A stretch of 64,000 nt of DNA. Origin: Ulvibacter algarum. Lineage in GTDB: Bacteria; Bacteroidota; Bacteroidia; Flavobacteriales; Flavobacteriaceae. The notes beneath the pieces were generated by a model, which saw only the letters and a list, made by a program, of their open reading frames with translations, was not told the DNA's origin and did no database searches. A program made the position numbers and the translations under genes. The stretch lies in NCBI GenBank assembly GCA_947488905.1, contig CANLBJ010000005.1, forward strand, positions 112,397 to 176,396. The letters are read 5' to 3'. Below, piece after piece: positions 1 to 45,158 of the stretch (positions within the stretch are counted from its first letter, which is position 1; every line of letters begins with the position of its first letter).

Positions 1-351
1 TCCATCCTCGAATTTATAGTAATATCCATACCTAAATGATTCATCTGAATTAAAATACTTTGTCTCAATTTCACGATTTTGGTTATCATATTTTCGCAAT
101 GATTTTCTAACAGAATTATTCTCCATTCCGATTTCACAAACAGGATTTCCATTTCGGTCAAATTCGATTGACGATGAAAGTAACGTATCTCTTAAGAATG
201 TTATTTTTTTAATTTTATGTTCTTTTATGAATTCAGCAGTCGATTTTCCTAAATCAAGTTTATTGAAAAGTCGTTCAGGTTCGTGTTGAATTTTAGATTG
301 TCCGAAAGCAATCTGGGAAGCAAAAATTATTAATATTAGAATTCTGTTCAT
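1..351 (-). CDS. hypothetical secreted protein, N-terminal part only (gene runs off the left edge)
   Basis: Absent from the ORF track because no stop codon lies in the window. A reverse-strand ATG at 351..349 opens MNRILILIIFASQIAFGQSKIQHEPERLF..., and I translated 117 codons to position 1 without a stop. The N-terminus looks like a signal peptide. It is preceded by the same spacer module as the neighbouring genes. Confidence 0.5.
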   Translation of the reverse strand, partial: MNRILILIIFASQIAFGQSKIQHEPERLFNKLDLGKSTAEFIKEHKIKKITFLRDTLLSSSIEFDRNGNPVCEIGMENNSVRKSLRKYDNQNREIETKYFNSDESFRYGYYYKFEDG

Positions 352-399
352 TGGTTTTGGGTCAAATTACTTGTAACGTTTATGTGTAAGGAACGTTAC

Positions 400-459
400 A
401 AACACGCAACGACCTTTGATTAAGCACTAAGCCGCAATTATTTTTATACTGTGTTAGCA
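400..459. repeat. 60-bp intergenic repeat, copy 1 (AAACACGCAACGACCTTTGATTAAGCACTAAGCCGCAATTATTTTTATACTGTGTTAGCA)
   Basis: Matches 2598..2657 at 59 of 60 positions. Both copies lie directly 3-prime of a minus-strand gene's stop codon. Confidence 0.9.
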
Positions 460-466
460 CACGTTT

Positions 467-1702
467 TTATTTCATAATCTTGTTAAATCTTTGGTTCAGA
501 CCGTCGATAAATTTATGCGTTTTTTTGTCAAATCCATTGATTTTCCCTAAACTATCTCGTTCAAAGTGAAACCATAATTCTGCATCTGTGTCAAAAAAAA
601 TATCTTTTTCATAAGCGTAAATTGGAATTGGTTCACGAACAATGTTTCTGCGTACAGTTTGAAATTTCAAGGTGTCATTTTCAATTATGATGTTATTCCA
701 AAACACTTTGCTTTTCTCAAATAGATAATTTCCTAAATACTCTTTCTTCTCATTGGAAGTAATGTCTTTAGGTTTTAAAAACTTATTTCGTTGAACTCTT
801 CGCTCTTTTAAATTATACTTATCGCCATTCTTTAGAACGTAGAATTTGTCTTTTCCAGTTTCGAGCGTGTCAATTTCATTGAAATAAGGCGACCAAAATG
901 TTTGGTCATAAATTGCTACATATTTATCTCCTATAACCTCAAATTCGTTTCCTTGGACTATAATTGCCGTATGTTCGTCAACGCCAATACCTAATAATTC
1001 TGGTCTAATTTTTAACAACTCAAACATATCATATTGTCTATTCCGATAAAGATGATGTTGGTCAAAAACAGTATTTGAAACAAATCCAAACCCAACATCG
1101 GGATTTCCAATAATTTTATAGTTGCCATTTAAATCTCTTCCTCCTCTTGCTAAATAAGAACCTTGAATTGATGCTCCTGCTGAAGTTCCTCCGATTATGC
1201 CATTACGATTTAAAAGATTAATTAACTCTTTATGCGTTTTGGTATTTGAATAAGCATCAGATGTTCTCCATTGTTTACCTCCTGTCAACCAAACTGCGGT
1301 TGCAGTTTTTAAAGGTTTGATAAATTCATCACTATTAGCAATTAAAGTATCTCTCGTGTGAATGAATTTTATATCATTGAATCCAATAGATTTAAAATGT
1401 CTTTCTAAAATTTTAAATTCAGGGTCGTAGTTGATTGAATTTTCATCAAAAGCGGTAGGAATAACAACAAGTTTGGCTGATTTACCGCCTGCCAAGTCAA
1501 AAAACACTTTCCACATTTCATCTGTCATTCCATCATTTTTTCCGCCACCACCAATTAATAATGCCCCGTTTGTTGGTCCAATAGATTGACTTTTATTTTC
1601 GTTCGATTTATTTATCGTTTCTTGGCAAGAAAACATTAAAATTAGAAGAGAAAATATTAATGTAATTTTTAGAAGATTTAATTTCAATTTACTGATTTTC
1701 AT
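467..1702 (-). CDS. peptidase S51 family (cyanophycinase / dipeptidase E-like) lipoprotein
   Basis: ORF track. Lipoprotein-type signal peptide (..LILMFSC). The GGTSAGAS motif is typical of the S51 serine nucleophile region. An extra C-terminal region of about 100 aa has no fold I recognise. Confidence 0.7.
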   Translation of the reverse strand: MKISKLKLNLLKITLIFSLLILMFSCQETINKSNENKSQSIGPTNGALLIGGGGKNDGMTDEMWKVFFDLAGGKSAKLVVIPTAFDENSINYDPEFKILERHFKSIGFNDIKFIHTRDTLIANSDEFIKPLKTATAVWLTGGKQWRTSDAYSNTKTHKELINLLNRNGIIGGTSAGASIQGSYLARGGRDLNGNYKIIGNPDVGFGFVSNTVFDQHHLYRNRQYDMFELLKIRPELLGIGVDEHTAIIVQGNEFEVIGDKYVAIYDQTFWSPYFNEIDTLETGKDKFYVLKNGDKYNLKERRVQRNKFLKPKDITSNEKKEYLGNYLFEKSKVFWNNIIIENDTLKFQTVRRNIVREPIPIYAYEKDIFFDTDAELWFHFERDSLGKINGFDKKTHKFIDGLNQRFNKIMK

Positions 1703-1798
1703 ATAATGTAGAATGTTTTTTTTTAATGTGTGCTAACGTTCTTGTATATGAGTAGTGCGGGCGAGAATAGCGAAAGCTATTCGGTTAAGCACGAGCTG

Positions 1799-1855
1799 AT
1801 TTTTACAAATTTCGATTATTATTTTTTTTTTGCAATAAGTCGAATTTGTAAAAAT
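1799..1855. repeat. imperfect 22-bp inverted repeat (ATTTTTACAAATTTCGATTATT / AATAAGTCGAATTTGTAAAAAT) around a T-run loop
   Basis: Read directly from the sequence. It lies in the 247-bp spacer between two cassette-like genes. A separate GAAA-tetraloop hairpin GAATAGC-GAAA-GCTATTC sits at 1765..1782. Confidence 0.7.
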
Positions 1856-1949
1856 CTAGCGGTCTCCCAAATATACCCGAACTTTTAATTAAGCACAAAC
1901 TCCCGTGTTGCTTATAATATTTTGTTGCCCACAGTTTACGTCGGTATTA

Positions 1950-2519
1950 CTAATCAAATTCCCATCTTCCGTCAATTAATCTATAAACAAAAGGGGTGGT
2001 GATCAAACAGCCCCCAAATCCAAAATCCAGTATTGCAATTTTATAGTCTTTATCGAAAATTGGTTTTGACATAAAAAATAAATCAGGATATTTTTCATAA
2101 AAATCATCACGGGCCTTTTCAGTAGTTCCGTATCTACGTATCGGGTAAAATTCTTTTCGTGATACAATGTTTAAGCCGTCACGCAATAATTTTTCGTCAA
2201 TTAATAATTCTTGTTTAATGCCAATCAAATTCTCGTATTCCTTTTCATTCTTTAGTTTGAATTTTTCGAAAATAAATTGTTTAAATTCTTTTTCGCTCAA
2301 AAATTCTTGTGCATCAAATGTATCTCCTTTTTTTGGTGGTTCCACAATATTTTGGCAATATGAAGAACTTGAATTTTCGTCAGTTATATCGTTCAATAAT
2401 TTTGCAGTATGTTCAGAGTATAGTTCTGATGTAGTTTTTACTTGGTTTTTATCATCATCGCATCCACTAATAAATATTAGTCCAAATAAAACAAATAGTA
2501 TTTTAATAACGTTTTTCAT
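1950..2519 (-). CDS. hypothetical lipoprotein
   Basis: Uses the ORF-track frame, with the start moved to the internal ATG at 2519 (MKNVIKILFVLFGLIFISGC lipobox). The 28 extra N-terminal codons in the track run into the conserved spacer repeat. Confidence 0.65.
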   Translation of the reverse strand: MKNVIKILFVLFGLIFISGCDDDKNQVKTTSELYSEHTAKLLNDITDENSSSSYCQNIVEPPKKGDTFDAQEFLSEKEFKQFIFEKFKLKNEKEYENLIGIKQELLIDEKLLRDGLNIVSRKEFYPIRRYGTTEKARDDFYEKYPDLFFMSKPIFDKDYKIAILDFGFGGCLITTPFVYRLIDGRWEFD

Positions 2520-2597
2520 AAATTGTGGGCGACGGTTACGTATAAGAATAGTGCGTTTTTGTGTGCGAGAATTTTCCGCAGGAAAATCAGACGTAGT

Positions 2598-2657
2598 AAA
2601 CACGCAATGACCTTTGATTAAGCACTAAGCCGCAATTATTTTTATACTGTGTTAGCA
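2598..2657. repeat. 60-bp intergenic repeat, copy 2
   Basis: Matches 400..459 at 59 of 60 positions and ends 4 bp before the stop codon of the 2662..3153 gene. Confidence 0.9.
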
Positions 2658-2661
2658 ATAG

Positions 2662-3153
2662 TTATTTTTTCCGCTTTTTATATCGTTTCAATTTTTTCAA
2701 ACGCTTGGATTCGAGTTCAGTAATTAATTCCGAACCAATACAAATATCGGTTGTTAAATATGGTTTAACTTTAGTTTTTTTGTCGAAATAAGGATTGTTA
2801 TCAGTTGTGTATGCATAAATCAAATACGATTCATTTTCTAAATAATATCCACCGCAATCCCCTTCATCTCCAGATGTTGTAATTCGAATCGTTTTGGTTT
2901 GCATCGTACCTTTAAAAACTTCCGTTATTTCAAATTCGAAATCATAAAGTGAGTATTCAAAATTATAAACCGTTCCATCTTTTTTCGGATGTGTTTCAAT
3001 AAAATCATTCTTGGTAACTTTTGCTACTTTCCCAATAAATGCAGTCTCTGATTGCTTTAGAGCTTTTCTGACACTCACTTCATAACAACTACAAGCAAAC
3101 GAAACAGAAGTTACGAGTGAAAGTAAAATTGCTAAGTGTAAGTTTTTTTTCAT
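2662..3153 (-). CDS. secreted CxC-N-terminus protein, possible TIMP/NTR-like inhibitor fold
   Basis: ORF track. The signal peptide MKKNLHLAILLSLVTSVSFA is followed by CSCYEVSVRKALKQSETAFIGKV. The layout resembles the Cys-X-Cys mature N-terminus of TIMP-type OB-fold inhibitors. The fold assignment is an inference. Confidence 0.6.
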   Translation of the reverse strand: MKKNLHLAILLSLVTSVSFACSCYEVSVRKALKQSETAFIGKVAKVTKNDFIETHPKKDGTVYNFEYSLYDFEFEITEVFKGTMQTKTIRITTSGDEGDCGGYYLENESYLIYAYTTDNNPYFDKKTKVKPYLTTDICIGSELITELESKRLKKLKRYKKRKK

Positions 3154-3333
3154 AATTATTGCTAACGTTAGTATAACGAAACTAAGTAAAATAATTCAAA
3201 TAAAACCCCTAGAAATAAGGAGTCTTAAAAATCTTCATTGCTTTTATCTATAACTCAATATGGGGTGCGTTATCAAAACATTTATAGATTTTAAAAGATT
3301 GTTAATAATTAATAACACGTATTAATACAAAAA

Positions 3334-3361
3334 CAAAAAAACCAACCAAAAGGCTGGGGTT
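3334..3361 (-). terminator. intrinsic terminator downstream of the 3445..4563 gene
   Basis: The minus-sense RNA reads AAACCCCAGCC-UUUU-GGUUGG followed by a U-run. G-U pairs make the stem strand-specific. It is homologous to the terminator at 45159..45187. Confidence 0.55.
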
Positions 3362-3444
3362 TAAATTTGTAATATTTCCGAAGTAAAAAAAAGCGCCCTC
3401 CTAAAAAGAAAGACGCTTTAATAAATTATGTTTGTGTAATGTAC

Positions 3445-4563
3445 TTAAAGATACTTCTTAAAAGTACTACGCTCTTTATGCTGTACAGGCTTATAATCTT
3501 TCCATAATAGTTGTACTGCCGTATTTTCTATAAGCTCTGGGTTTGTCTCTACTTTGTCTATTCCTTTAGAGTTAAAGAGATATTGCATTTCTTCAAAAAT
3601 AATGGCCGTAACCCCTTTACCTTGATATTCAGGGTCTATACCTATTAGGTAAAATGCAGCCTTGTCATTTTTGCGTTGTGCTTGCCATAAATGGTACCAC
3701 CCAAAAGGAAATAAGCTACCATTTGCTTTCTTTAATGCTTTGCTAAAAGAAGGCATCACAATAGAAAAAGCGACCAACTCATCATTTTTGTCTTTGATAC
3801 AAGTGATGTAATCTGGCTGTATAAAGTTAAAATACTTCTCTTTATAATAATCTATTTGATACTGCTGTATAGGTACAAAAGTTTGTAGTGAGTTGTATGT
3901 TTTGTTTAAAAGCTCAAACATTTTATCTACATAAGGTATGATCTCCTTTTTGTTTTTAAACTCAATAACAGATAGCCCATAACGTTGCTTTACAAGTCCA
4001 GAAAACTTTGCTACTTTTTCTTTAATAGAAGGAGGTATGCTTAAGCTAAACTCAACCCAAGTGGCTTGTTTTTCAAAACCTAGTTTCTCAAAGTGCTGCG
4101 CGTAATATGGGTGATGGTACCAAGTTATCATGGTATTCATCTTATCAAAACCATCTGTAAGTATTCCGGCTTTTTCCATATTACCAAAACCTACAGGGCC
4201 TTCTATATACTCAAGACCAAGTTCTGCACCTTTCTCATAGGCTTTTGCAAGTAAGGCTTGTGTTACATCTAGATCATCAATCATGTCTAACCACCCAAAA
4301 CGTACTTTCTTCTTCCCCGTTTCTCTTATCTCTACGTGGTTAATAATAATAGCAATCCTGCCCACAATTTTACCATCGCGATAAGCAAGGTAATATTCGG
4401 CATCTGCGTTCTTAAAAACAGGATTCTTATCCTTATCAAGTGTCTCTATCTCATCATTGATAAGTGGTGGCACCCAGTAAGGTGATTTTTTATAAAGCGT
4501 AAACGGAAACTTTACAAACTTCTTTATATCCTGTTGGCTGGTAATTTTTTTAACTTCAATCAT
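3445..4563 (-). CDS. GNAT-related acyltransferase family protein
   Basis: ORF track. The N-terminus (MIEVKKI..FPFTLYKKSPYWVPPL) and the C-terminal YLIGIDPEYQGKGV block match, from memory, a Bacteroidota N-acetyltransferase-like family. It starts 14 bp after the upstream gene and is probably co-transcribed. Confidence 0.6.
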   Translation of the reverse strand: MIEVKKITSQQDIKKFVKFPFTLYKKSPYWVPPLINDEIETLDKDKNPVFKNADAEYYLAYRDGKIVGRIAIIINHVEIRETGKKKVRFGWLDMIDDLDVTQALLAKAYEKGAELGLEYIEGPVGFGNMEKAGILTDGFDKMNTMITWYHHPYYAQHFEKLGFEKQATWVEFSLSIPPSIKEKVAKFSGLVKQRYGLSVIEFKNKKEIIPYVDKMFELLNKTYNSLQTFVPIQQYQIDYYKEKYFNFIQPDYITCIKDKNDELVAFSIVMPSFSKALKKANGSLFPFGWYHLWQAQRKNDKAAFYLIGIDPEYQGKGVTAIIFEEMQYLFNSKGIDKVETNPELIENTAVQLLWKDYKPVQHKERSTFKKYL

Positions 4564-15061: not shown

Positions 15062-15286
15062 CTATTTAGTAGTGGGAGGTCACACTTGAGAGTTGTCAAT
15101 AATTTTTTTTGAGGAAAGTTTAACATTTTTTTGCGTATGTGAGATTAAAGTTATTATATTTACGACCAAGTAATCACATACATAAAACAGAGGCCTATAG
15201 CATAACAATACTTTAAACACATTTTAAAAAGAACGACTAAGCAACCAAAGCATGAAGTTGTTTCACCTTTTAAAAATAAGTACGTT

Positions 15287-23901: not shown

Positions 23902-24543
23902 ATGGAGTTTACAGATTTTTTAAATAAAGCTTTAAAAGTAACAAAAATGGAACTTCCGGGAGAGGAGTTTCACTTAAAAATGGCGCCTATTGAGCGATTA
24001 ATTGAGTTAAAAAAGATTGCTAGAGATAAGAATACGGCAAAGAGAGCAGCTGTGTTGTCTCTTTTTTATCCTTCGGAAAAAGGCCAAACAAACCTTATTT
24101 TAATTTTAAGAAAGACTTATAAAGGAGTGCACTCTAACCAAGTAGGTTTTCCTGGCGGTAAATATGAAGATGGTGATGAGAACTATAAAAACACTGCCCT
24201 GAGAGAAACAGAAGAAGAAGTGGGTGTGCCAAGAGATACAGTCACTATTTTAAAAGAACTTACAGAAATTTATATACCGCCAAGCAACTTTTTTGTGCAG
24301 CCTTTTTTTGGGGTTACTAAAACCACACCAACGTTTATAGCTCAAGAAGAAGAGGTGGAGGCGCTTATAGAGGTAGACTTAGATCATTTTATGGATGATA
24401 GTATCATTATTACTAAAACACTCACTACATCTTACGCTAATGATCTAGATGTGCCAGCATACTTAATTAACAATCATGTAGTTTGGGGAGCTACTGCTAT
24501 GATGCTGAGTGAAGTACGTGAAATGCTTAAACAGCTACTCTAA
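23902..24543 (+). CDS. NUDIX hydrolase (CoA pyrophosphatase-like)
   Basis: ORF track. NUDIX box GFPGGKYEDGDENYKNTALRETEEEVGV. Confidence 0.8.
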   Translation: MEFTDFLNKALKVTKMELPGEEFHLKMAPIERLIELKKIARDKNTAKRAAVLSLFYPSEKGQTNLILILRKTYKGVHSNQVGFPGGKYEDGDENYKNTALRETEEEVGVPRDTVTILKELTEIYIPPSNFFVQPFFGVTKTTPTFIAQEEEVEALIEVDLDHFMDDSIIITKTLTTSYANDLDVPAYLINNHVVWGATAMMLSEVREMLKQLL

Positions 24544-44740: not shown

Positions 44741-45158
44741 TTTTTTAAATTGAGCTTAATATTATTGTGTAAGATTAGTTACGTATTTTAAACATTAAAG
44801 TTAGTGAATAAATCACAGAAAAACTCTGTTAAGAGTTTGATAAGTAGTAAAGAACCCAGCCAGTTTCTTTATTTATTTAAGAGGTGAAAAGTTGAGGTTA
44901 AATACTAGATTATGTAGTGATTAACTCGAAAACATTAAGGTGGGTTTAACCTAAAATTATAATTTCTACTTGCAAGAACTTTACAAATCTGAATTAAAAA
45001 CTAATAATTTTATTTTTATAATTATCTAGTGCTACTGGTAGCAAATCATTATGTGGCGCAGTGAAGTAATTGGCTATAACCCTGATATATCTTAAATACA
45101 GTAGGCTATCATCACAAAAGGTTTTTTTATTTCTTAATGTTACTACATATAATTTAAT

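Follow-up and report, generated by a model that had tools for sequence, protein, structure and literature searches.

The left edge of a 64,000-nt stretch of the Ulvibacter algarum genome (assembly GCA_947488905.1, contig CANLBJ010000005.1, positions 112,397 to 176,396; hereafter the window) carries four minus-strand open reading frames (ORFs) separated by copies of a repeated element of about 124 nt. This block, positions 1-3177, is probably a short, partly decayed four-cassette array, devoid of a recombinase, that belongs to an integron-like gene-capture system of Flavobacteriaceae and other Bacteroidota. The structure of the element, the complementary brackets around each ORF, the presence of arrays of the same layout in other genomes, their linkage to a tyrosine recombinase and the variable occupancy of the locus are observed directly and are described in turn.

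An earlier inspection of the window alone (the original prediction) had placed the four ORFs correctly and had likened the block to integron cassette arrays and to rAID-1, the recombinase-associated arrays of immunity genes described in Bacteroidales. Comparative data bear out a cassette array with site-like spacers, but several particulars of that analogy are wrong or unproven.

The repeated element and the bracket rule

A scan of one genome per species with the element core GTATAAAAATAAT-N7-TAGNGCTTAA identified at least 119 genome stretches in many genera of Flavobacteriaceae and others, including Winogradskyella, Polaribacter, Lacinutrix, Psychroserpens, Algibacter, Formosa, Olleya, Maribacter, Tenacibaculum, Cellulophaga, Dokdonia, Aquimarina, Kaistella, Profundicola and Owenweeksia. 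Many matches lie on tiny contigs, as expected of a repeat that breaks assemblies. Alignment defines the element as N7-AAC ACC GTATAAAAATAATTGCGG … CCGCAACTATTCTTATAC ATAAAC GTT-N7, with a length of about 124 nt, and the canonical copies are almost identical between genera. In these loci, taken as 8-kb stretches, an nhmmer profile hidden Markov model (HMM) detected 278 elements, 277 of which are co-oriented within their own locus. The arrays contain up to 9-11 copies per 7-8 kb, spaced at about 450-1200 bp, with one short ORF per interval. Element scores range from about 145 bits for canonical copies to about 20 bits for strongly diverged ones, which are mixed within single arrays, and nearly all elements are 121-131 nt long.

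The termini are AAC in 250 of 252 5' ends and GTT in 234 of 242 3' ends, with a preference for Y before AAC and R after GTT. Read as the reverse complement, the 7 nt past GTT equal the 7 nt that precede the next AAC, on the other side of the ORF. Of the 78 pairs of neighbouring elements separated by at most 1.2 kb, 70 show complementarity at 6-7 of the 7 positions (mean 6.26), as against 6 of 221 for the two flanks of one and the same element (mean 2.7) and about 3% for random pairs. All four cassettes of the window follow this bracket rule (Table 1).

The spacer features listed in the original prediction can be recognised as parts of this single element. The 60-mer found at 400-459 and 2598-2657, which differs at one position between its two copies, is the 5' half of the element; the motif TAGTGCG..GCGAGAAT with the hairpin that follows it is the 3' half, and TATAC-n-AACGTTAGCA is the 3' end. 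The 60-mer similarity extends to 81 nt at 89% identity (0 in 100 shuffles), and degenerate copies of TTAAGCAC do occur in the 1703-1949 spacer, at 1881-1899 and near 1783. The three short inverted repeats said to bracket individual ORFs are located as claimed, and all obey the GTT-N7..N7-AAC rule. In the window and the loci surveyed, the 60-mer does not behave as a generic dispersed repeat: it is present in two copies in 64 kb and occupies array positions in the other loci.

A second, GC-richer family of elements (family G, as opposed to family A described above) is found downstream of distant relatives of the recombinase considered below. It is unrelated in sequence to family A and has the same layout, with a length of 121-127 nt (Table 1). 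Within family A, some 'type B' variants (such as L104:2274 and L058:6037) have the order of the internal hairpin and the TAGTGCTTAA module swapped. In another array (L088) the elements at 374, 1529, 4633 and 5788 score near-identically, an apparent duplication of a cassette pair.

Insertion sequences (IS) of the IS110 family, encoding DEDD_Tnp_IS110 and Transposase_20 domains, sit inside elements at fixed positions. The IS left end directly follows N7-AAC-A in L027 and L069, the right end …CTTAAG(C/A)C adjoins GTATAAAAAT in L081, L089 and L111, and in L077 and L104 the insertion lies beside the 3' TTATAC/ATATAC box. The IS1111-attC group of the IS110 family targets integron attC sites; it likewise inserts at fixed positions inside a recombination-site element, whereas the target here is the flavobacterial element, after AAC-A or beside the 3' TTATAC/ATATAC box. 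In L040 and L116 a left flank …GGCGTTGTGCAACAGGCAC abuts ACC/AAT-GTATAAAAAT, a recurrent foreign sequence joined just past the AAC end that may be another element-targeting insertion.

Cassette content and exchange between genomes

The cassette set comprises 193 unique ORFs ending beside an element. Their median length is 178 aa, and a hydrophobic stretch is present at the N-terminus of about half of them. In a typical cassette 11-12 nt separate the stop codon from the AAC that follows, and about 23 nt separate GTT from the next start codon. Among the 193 ORFs, 17 (in loci L004-L122, e.g. L007:2972-3394) end in …NTV* by reading into AAC ACC GTA TAA, so that the element supplies their stop codon; gene callers may extend ORFs into the element.

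Pfam analysis of 114 cassette ORFs recovered 71 families, nearly all of them singletons, and most ORFs have no match or unrelated domains. GNAT, TPM, ParE toxin, SLATT_5, Mrr_cat, PLDc_2 and cytochrome c domains were found, as were one Imm10, one DUF1963 and one Rce1-like domain. This cargo resembles that of chromosomal integrons, and it does not establish the dedicated immunity-gene bank envisaged in the original prediction.

Four cassette pairs have members that are 89-96% identical and lie in different genomes, beside different neighbours. Their homology begins with GTT-N7 and stops at N7-AAC, and the element bodies differ on both sides, for example a canonical copy in one genome and a diverged or truncated variant in the other. 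Comparison of all against all places the beginning of shared segments at GTT (-3 to +12). Their end lies at GTT (0 to +3) where the two downstream elements are both canonical, and at AAC +7 to +23 where these elements differ. The ORF module may be the mobile unit, with the elements acting as resident docking sites. Alternatively, gene conversion may replace element bodies as far as homology extends, or exchange may take place at either terminus, for example with either strand serving as the substrate.

Homologous, RecA-type exchange within near-identical 124-bp repeats following horizontal transfer, with the recombinase as an incidental neighbour, would also draw on these facts, since the canonical elements supply homology across genera and the element bodies and ORF modules assort independently, with breaks at the limits of homology. 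However, it offers no reason for the invariant AAC/GTT, for the N7 complementarity, for a hairpin that covaries, and keeps an A·C mismatch, in two families of unrelated sequence, or for an element-less attI-like junction whose N7 matches the end of the first cassette (the last two are described below), and the strongly diverged variants within arrays would be poor substrates for RecA. This explanation is considered very unlikely.

Secondary structure and folding strand

As single-stranded DNA with its complementary flanks restored, the canonical element folds more stably than shuffled sequences, with z = -6.2 for the top strand and -6.75 for the bottom strand. The fold consists of a 10-bp terminal stem, an unpaired ACC opposite ATAAAC, a stem of about 18 bp with two mismatches and a branched tip. 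The AT-rich outer stem was missed by RNAalifold with RNA parameters; it was set by hand and compared with slid and shuffled controls. Among 45 non-redundant variants of family A, 93.5% of the cells of the outer stem are paired, compared with 23-43% in slid positions, and there are 80 double-sided changes as opposed to 27 ± 4 after shuffling (0/500), with 8 of 14 pairs covarying. For family G the corresponding figures are 17 covarying pairs out of 19 in the stem and 91.5% paired cells, values not reached in any of 500 shuffles. Both families have an A·C mismatch at position 18 of the stem, immediately preceding TTGC or TTGG (43/45 elements of family A and 14/15 of family G). The bottom strand has the lower minimum free energy in 43 of the 45 elements of family A. 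An A·C on the coding strand is a G·T on the bottom strand, and the A·C bias of family A speaks against a structure formed by the mRNA and is similar to what attC sites show.

Alternatively, the elements could be RNA or regulatory structures (REP-like sequences, stabilisers, terminators or antisense RNA) in operons of fast-evolving genes of secreted proteins, with no site-specific recombination involved; their stem is strongly conserved and covaries, and they occupy intergenic positions that are transcribed and co-oriented. However, the coding strand of family A contains the A·C mismatches, which makes the mRNA the poorer folder, no T-run follows the element hairpin, and a search of Rfam at permissive thresholds gave chance-level matches on the window block and none on a canonical array. 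Structures of this kind would leave unexplained the 7-nt complementarity across each ORF, the sharp breaks of homology at AAC/GTT between genomes, the junction after the recombinase gene and the chromosomal site that is empty or differently filled in relatives, and they are a very improbable explanation of the data.

The array-linked recombinase and the array-start junction

Clustering of all ORFs of the element loci revealed very few recurrent families. One of them is a tyrosine recombinase of 376-394 aa encoded upstream of, and co-oriented with, the arrays in L068 (6177-7361 as stored, minus strand), L020 (239-1369) and L058. The protein contains Phage_integrase and SAM-like domains. It passed the NCBIfam 'XerA / integron integrase' model (230.6 vs the cutoff of 220) and failed the integron-integrase subfamily model TIGR02249 (216 bits vs the cutoff of 265, with a split match). 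It aligns end to end with archaeal XerA structures (best full-length: XerA, 5hxy, 4a8e), whereas the alignment with VchIntIA (2a3v) falls into two blocks with 23 residues in place of the 66 found in IntI. The recombinase therefore lacks the IntI-specific domain, which reads folded attC sites and is considered defining for integrons.

Members of the recombinase family occur in Flavobacterium and in the Bacteroidales genera Tenuifilum and Paludibacter, and are named 'site-specific tyrosine recombinase/integron integrase' or 'tyrosine-type recombinase/integrase' by NCBI. A conserved N-terminal extension of about 95 aa with the motif …RWS..-K.W..P… precedes the SAM-like domain in L068, L020, L125 and L146. 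It has no confident Pfam match (a weak match to DUF5710, E ~0.01-0.02), and PF22823, which is listed for family members, was not matched in the Pfam scan. This extension is a candidate for the part of the protein that recognises the element.

A reverse search of metagenomes for relatives of the recombinase yielded 80 loci, 6 of which contain canonical elements, always downstream and co-oriented. Contigs stop less than 400 bp downstream of the recombinase gene in 35 cases and upstream of it in 16. Nearly all close relatives carry the junction ATATAAC-N2-3-GTT-N7 about 15-130 nt (mostly 15-45) past the stop codon. The bracket of the first cassette, namely the reverse complement of this N7 followed by AAC and the 5' end of an element, matches exactly in 10 loci and with a single mismatch in 3, while about 0.006 exact brackets are expected by chance per 6 kb. 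Of 43 recombinase loci that have 700 nt or more of downstream sequence, 20 gave a positive result in a sequence-agnostic bracket test (10 nt exact), compared with 4 of 80 control stretches upstream of the recombinase gene, taken in every locus. The positives include recombinases 36-41% identical to the query and contigs with GC contents up to 0.49; two of the 20 (L156 and L164) are without the junction motif and look like chance. One locus considered as a case of a recombinase without an array (L123) was rejected as such, for it has the junction, a bracket with one mismatch and a diverged element missed by the HMM.

Comparison with known systems

Like integrons, these loci consist of co-oriented arrays of compact, promoter-less and highly diverse cassettes. 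The site is an imperfect AAC…GTT palindrome in which the spacer is asymmetric and unpaired and mismatches are conserved, each cassette begins with a sequence complementary to the beginning of its own 3' site, and an attI-like junction lies beside a tyrosine recombinase of the Xer/IntI clade. Some ORFs end inside the site, the cargo includes toxin-antitoxin and GNAT genes, IS110-family insertions target the site, and clusters without a recombinase are found at secondary sites. However, the recombinase has no IntI-specific insertion and possesses the extra N-terminal domain of about 95 aa. It is co-oriented with the array, which begins just past its stop codon, unlike the classical layout of attI by intI, a usually divergent intI and a Pc promoter; no promoter was identified here. 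The complementary flank comprises 7 nt and the triplet instead of 4 nt, and the element further differs from attC in spacing (3 vs 6 nt) and in sequence. The elements are about 124 nt long and nearly identical across genera, and the element body does not stay with the ORF. In integrons an ORF and its own attC move as a unit with a crossover at G|TT, whereas the segments shared here end at AAC and at GTT. The original prediction, which likened the block to integron arrays in which the core and inverse-core sites of a cassette flank its ORF, needs amending in two respects: the recombinase associated with these arrays is of the Xer type and is no integron integrase, and an element does not strictly accompany its ORF as an attC does.

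The window block could in principle be a classical integron remnant, that is, a cluster of attC sites that has no integron integrase (CALIN), with ordinary attC sites and an IntI encoded elsewhere. By analogy the block does correspond to a CALIN, as it contains at least two co-oriented sites with no integrase near (E1-E3 in the window and E4 in a contig extending beyond it, all on the minus strand, Table 1). The AAC/GTT ends, the YAAC…GTTR preference, the asymmetric unpaired spacer, the mismatched stem, the cassette-specific complementarity and the first of the two NCBI names of the linked recombinase point towards ordinary attC sites and an IntI. But the sites are not canonical attC, and the recombinase falls short of the integron-integrase model, is without the IntI-specific domain, has XerA as its best structural relatives by sequence, and is co-oriented with the array, directly adjoining the first cassette. 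Moreover, identical cassettes do not retain their downstream element, and Bacteroidetes are unmentioned in the paper on the IntegronFinder survey; a review names Bacteroidota among integron-bearing phyla without giving detail. A remnant of this kind is therefore a highly unlikely source of the block.

Equally little credence is given to the view that the elements are small mobile DNAs (like miniature inverted-repeat transposable elements, MITEs, or mobilised by IS110) lodged in the spacers of passive ORFs: they are multi-copy, terminally inverted and assembly-breaking, and IS110 genes are present in several arrays, but the elements are near-uniformly oriented and regularly spaced with one ORF between them, not scattered in either orientation as repetitive extragenic palindromic sequences (REPs), bacterial interspersed mosaic elements (BIMEs) or MITEs are, in the loci and window surveyed, the two flanks of one element are unrelated (6/221), which speaks against target duplication or a palindromic target, the IS110 copies interrupt elements and so mark them as targets instead of cargo, and the 64-kb window has no further copies outside the left-edge block.

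The rAID-1 clusters of Bacteroidales have a 5' XerD-like recombinase, co-directional low-GC genes and integron-like repetitive intergenic motifs (Ross et al. 2019, bioRxiv 10.1101/471110; 10.1101/2025.05.03.651265). They are reported only from Bacteroidales, and their definition requires immunity-gene cargo and a recombinase whose identity to B. fragilis BF9343_RS08045 is at least 44%; recombinase homologues above 50% identity are, according to the authors, restricted to Bacteroidales; no recombination site, cassette boundary or fold is defined in these papers (10.1101/471110; 10.1101/2025.05.03.651265). The present system belongs to the same phylum, and its recombinase family has members in Bacteroidales, namely in the two genera mentioned above. 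Two or more co-directional low-GC genes with repeat motifs are found in L068, L020, L058, L125, L130 and L143; in the window the genes and repeats are present, with a GC content of 0.312 against 0.340 for the rest. The differences are that the hosts here are mostly marine Flavobacteriaceae, that the cargo is general (GNAT, TPM, ParE, PLD, Mrr, SLATT and one Imm10) and that the window block has no recombinase. Polyimmunity loci are tandem, co-oriented and strain-variable sets of small genes, sometimes beside a XerC/D-like recombinase that was proposed to help gene accumulation (Zhang et al. 2012, PMC3482391). In contrast to the arrays considered here, they are defined by their content of immunity proteins, with no repeat element, junction or boundaries described. 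No description of the element, its boundaries or Flavobacteriaceae arrays of this type was found in the searchable literature. The system probably works like an integron and is probably related to rAID-1, although it departs from integrons in its recombinase, which is not an IntI, and in its sites, which do not travel with the ORF.

The block in the U. algarum genome

The features of the block are listed in Table 1. A near-identical metagenome contig (ENA ERZ6863577, designated L001) extends past the left edge of the window. Beyond cassette C4 it contains a truncated fourth copy of the repeat, a terminator and genes for a convergent aminotransferase, PALP, an S9 peptidase and YbaB. Just four genes thus make up the array, which is bounded on the left by the aminotransferase gene, contrary to the earlier view that the window displays the end of a larger array. 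Genes of a recombinase, of type VI or type IX secretion systems or of Rhs-type toxins, which the original prediction had suggested looking for, are present neither in the 64-kb window nor in the approximately 6 kb of L001 past the block.

Table 1. Features of the left-edge block of the window, its continuation in contig L001 and the second element family
Feature	Position	Strand	Description
Element E1	2531-2653	minus	123 nt, sole essentially complete copy; AAC 2653-2651, 3' triplet 2533-2531
Element E2	1735-1926	minus	192 nt, diverged; AAC 1926-1924, GTT 1737-1735
Element E3	375-455	minus	81 nt, internal deletion; AAC 455-453, GTT 377-375
Element E4, truncated	L001 ~15176-15230, outside window		after C4
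Array-start junction remnant	3164-3177	minus	TTATAC-TAAC-GTT
Bracket of C1	3166-3157, 2660-2651	minus	GTT-AGCAATA .. TATTGCT-AAC
Bracket of C2	2533-2524, 1933-1924	minus	GTC-GCCCACA .. TGTGGGC-AAC; mutated triplet
Bracket of C3	1737-1728, 462-453	minus	GTT-AGCACAC .. GTGTGCT-AAC
Bracket of C4	377-368, L001		GTT-ACAAGTA .. TGCTTGT-AAC (in L001); match 5/7
Cassette C1	2662-3153	minus	secreted or lipoprotein, 163 aa; weak sub-threshold TIMP-like match
Cassette C2	1950-2519	minus	lipoprotein, 189 aa counted from ATG at 2519
Cassette C3	467-1702	minus	lipoprotein, 411 aa; Peptidase_S51 domain
Cassette C4, 5' part	1-351	minus	signal-peptide protein; no Pfam match
Non-coding leader, GNAT gene to array	3178-3444	minus	two terminator-like hairpins, 3419-3390 and 3357-3342
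Family G element	L143:10474-19350; also L166, L193, L137, L135		AAC AG CGGTTT… …GCCGCGGAAC GTT

The copies of the element in the window are damaged to different degrees. E1, which includes the 60-mer, the hairpin and the TAGTGCG..GCGAGAAT pieces, scores 115 and 97 bits in nhmmer (model positions 1-123/125), and its 3' triplet is GTC, mutated from GTT. E2 is interrupted by an inverted repeat with 23-nt arms (1798-1856), and its HMM matches are fragmentary (1761-1735 and 1901-1845). E3 corresponds to nhmmer model positions 1-63 joined to a 3' remnant, without the central hairpin and the 3' half of the stem. Folded in place, the window copies are no better than shuffled sequences. Upstream of C1 just the final ~14 nt of an element or attI-like junction are left, comparable to the element 3' end TTATAC-N6-GTT and to the attI-like ATATAAC-NN-GTT. 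This remnant marks the abrupt end of the block, noticed earlier at about 3200. The AT-richness of the block noted by eye is real but modest, as 1.4% of the other 3.2-kb windows have a GC content as low. Elsewhere in the window the element HMM gave very weak matches at 44758-44879 on the minus strand (13.5 bits, E = 0.004) and at 24006-24098 (10.5 bits, E = 0.04), which lack the AAC/GTT termini and are probably due to chance in AT-rich sequence.

The order in the sense of the genes is the GNAT gene (3445-4563), terminators, a leader of about 270 nt, and C1 to C4. Scans with sigma-70 and Bacteroidota promoter motifs upstream of C1 returned nothing above chance, and one Bacteroidota-type -33/-7 motif pair is located inside E2, upstream of C3 (1875-1868). 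Because two terminators follow the GNAT gene and no outstanding promoter motif precedes C1, the expression of C1 and C2 is uncertain.

Inspection of all four products reveals the signal or lipobox-like N-termini that had been ascribed to them. The S51 domain of C3 is the only one recognised by Pfam, leaving three products of unknown function; an exact-protein look-up with C3 gave no match, and those with the GNAT protein and C1 retrieved the neighbouring contig. The similarity of C1 to the TIMP family in Pfam (E = 0.0023, 18.2 bits) is below the cutoff of 23.1, and the mature N-terminus after the signal peptide would read Cys-Ser-Cys. A TIMP/NTR-like fold is possible; the protease-inhibitor fold mentioned in the original prediction has this sub-threshold match as its only support. 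Gene callers give C2, both in the window and in L001, as a 217-aa ORF with a GTG start that overlaps E1, and a homologue with 42% identity is a cassette in the Lacinutrix mariniflava array L061. The full-length C4 product, read from L001, has 317 aa.

The source of the window stands close to Patiriisocius, and the same chromosomal site differs in relatives. L203 and L206 encode GNAT proteins of 92% and 83% identity; in both, just a bidirectional terminator of about 60 bp lies between the GNAT gene and the aminotransferase gene, and the leader upstream of C1 is missing as well. In L204 (GNAT 95% identical) the site (2110-3700) contains a different lipoprotein gene, preceded by GTGAGCAAAC and followed by ATTTGCTAAC and a truncated element start; further on are a duplicated bidirectional terminator and a HigB-like/HigA-like pair (HI1420-type antitoxin). 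The window and L001 have the four cassettes at this site. The four genes are therefore not vertically conserved, in line with the cassette interpretation of the original prediction, and the GNAT/aminotransferase site appears to be a hot spot of repeated insertion. Another locus (L003), considered as a different context for C1, was rejected, as it is the same locus with a GNAT fragment. Judged from its sequence, the block is a small orphan cluster in decay, complete in itself and located at a secondary site.

Proposed mechanism

In a complete locus of the proposed capture system, the gene of the Xer-like recombinase would be followed, usually after a few tens of nucleotides, by the attI-like junction ATATAAC-NN-GTT. 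The co-oriented array would come next, each unit consisting of GTT-N7, a promoter-less ORF, the complementary N7-AAC and an element of about 124 nt. The element takes the overall form of attC: its long stem contains mismatches and is closed by AAC/GTT, the unpaired spacer is asymmetric and the tip is branched. By joining pairs of folded elements, or an element and the junction, at AAC/GTT, the recombinase would excise and insert ORF modules, and the complementary N7 flanks would close the terminal stem when the module is circular. We infer three parts of this scheme: that the recombinase is the catalyst, that the substrate is single-stranded or cruciform, and where exactly the crossover falls. 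The block of U. algarum would have entered the secondary site between the GNAT and aminotransferase genes and would now be decaying, as suggested by the mutated triplet of E1, the insertion in E2, the internal deletion of E3 and the truncation of E4.

Several observations weigh against an integron-like capture system or against some of its parts. A recombinase is absent from the entire window, including about 10 kb on the GNAT side, and from about 6 kb on the other side, and, with damaged elements in addition, no activity can be inferred at the window locus. Even among the element loci, 3 of the at least 119 8-kb stretches include the recombinase, so that its linkage to the arrays comes mainly from the reverse search and the analysis of junctions and brackets. 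Identical cassettes with different element bodies are unexpected under a simple one-crossover attC model. With regard to the folding strand, the coding strand of family A has 110 A·C against 8 G·T mismatches, but three conserved columns give 101 of the 110; family G is mixed (25 vs 13), with a conserved T·G pair and a lower energy of the bottom strand in 9 of 15 elements. Because three columns dominate family A and family G is mixed, folding of the bottom strand is considered no more than suggestive.

Implications

Integrons serve as the textbook case of gene capture by site-specific recombination. In the present system, which comes from a different phylum, a site structurally analogous to attC goes together with a simple recombinase of the Xer type. 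This bears on the origin of integron-like systems from Xer recombinases. More tentatively, the arrays might represent a second, IntI-independent lineage of integron-type platforms, based on a Xer-like recombinase and folded sites of about 124 nt with exchange at the AAC or the GTT terminus, in which modules and element bodies assort independently; such a lineage would be common in marine Flavobacteriaceae, and related to the rAID-1 of Bacteroidales but broader.

Clusters of the rAID-1 type gain a concrete site, junction and cassette boundary, and are extended from the immunity banks of gut Bacteroidales to general accessory arrays in abundant marine Flavobacteriaceae. The element accounts for assembly breaks and for mis-called ORFs that run into it. 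With the element and the bracket rule, cassettes of this kind can be recognised and counted in genomes and metagenomes, where tools of the IntegronFinder type are probably blind to them.

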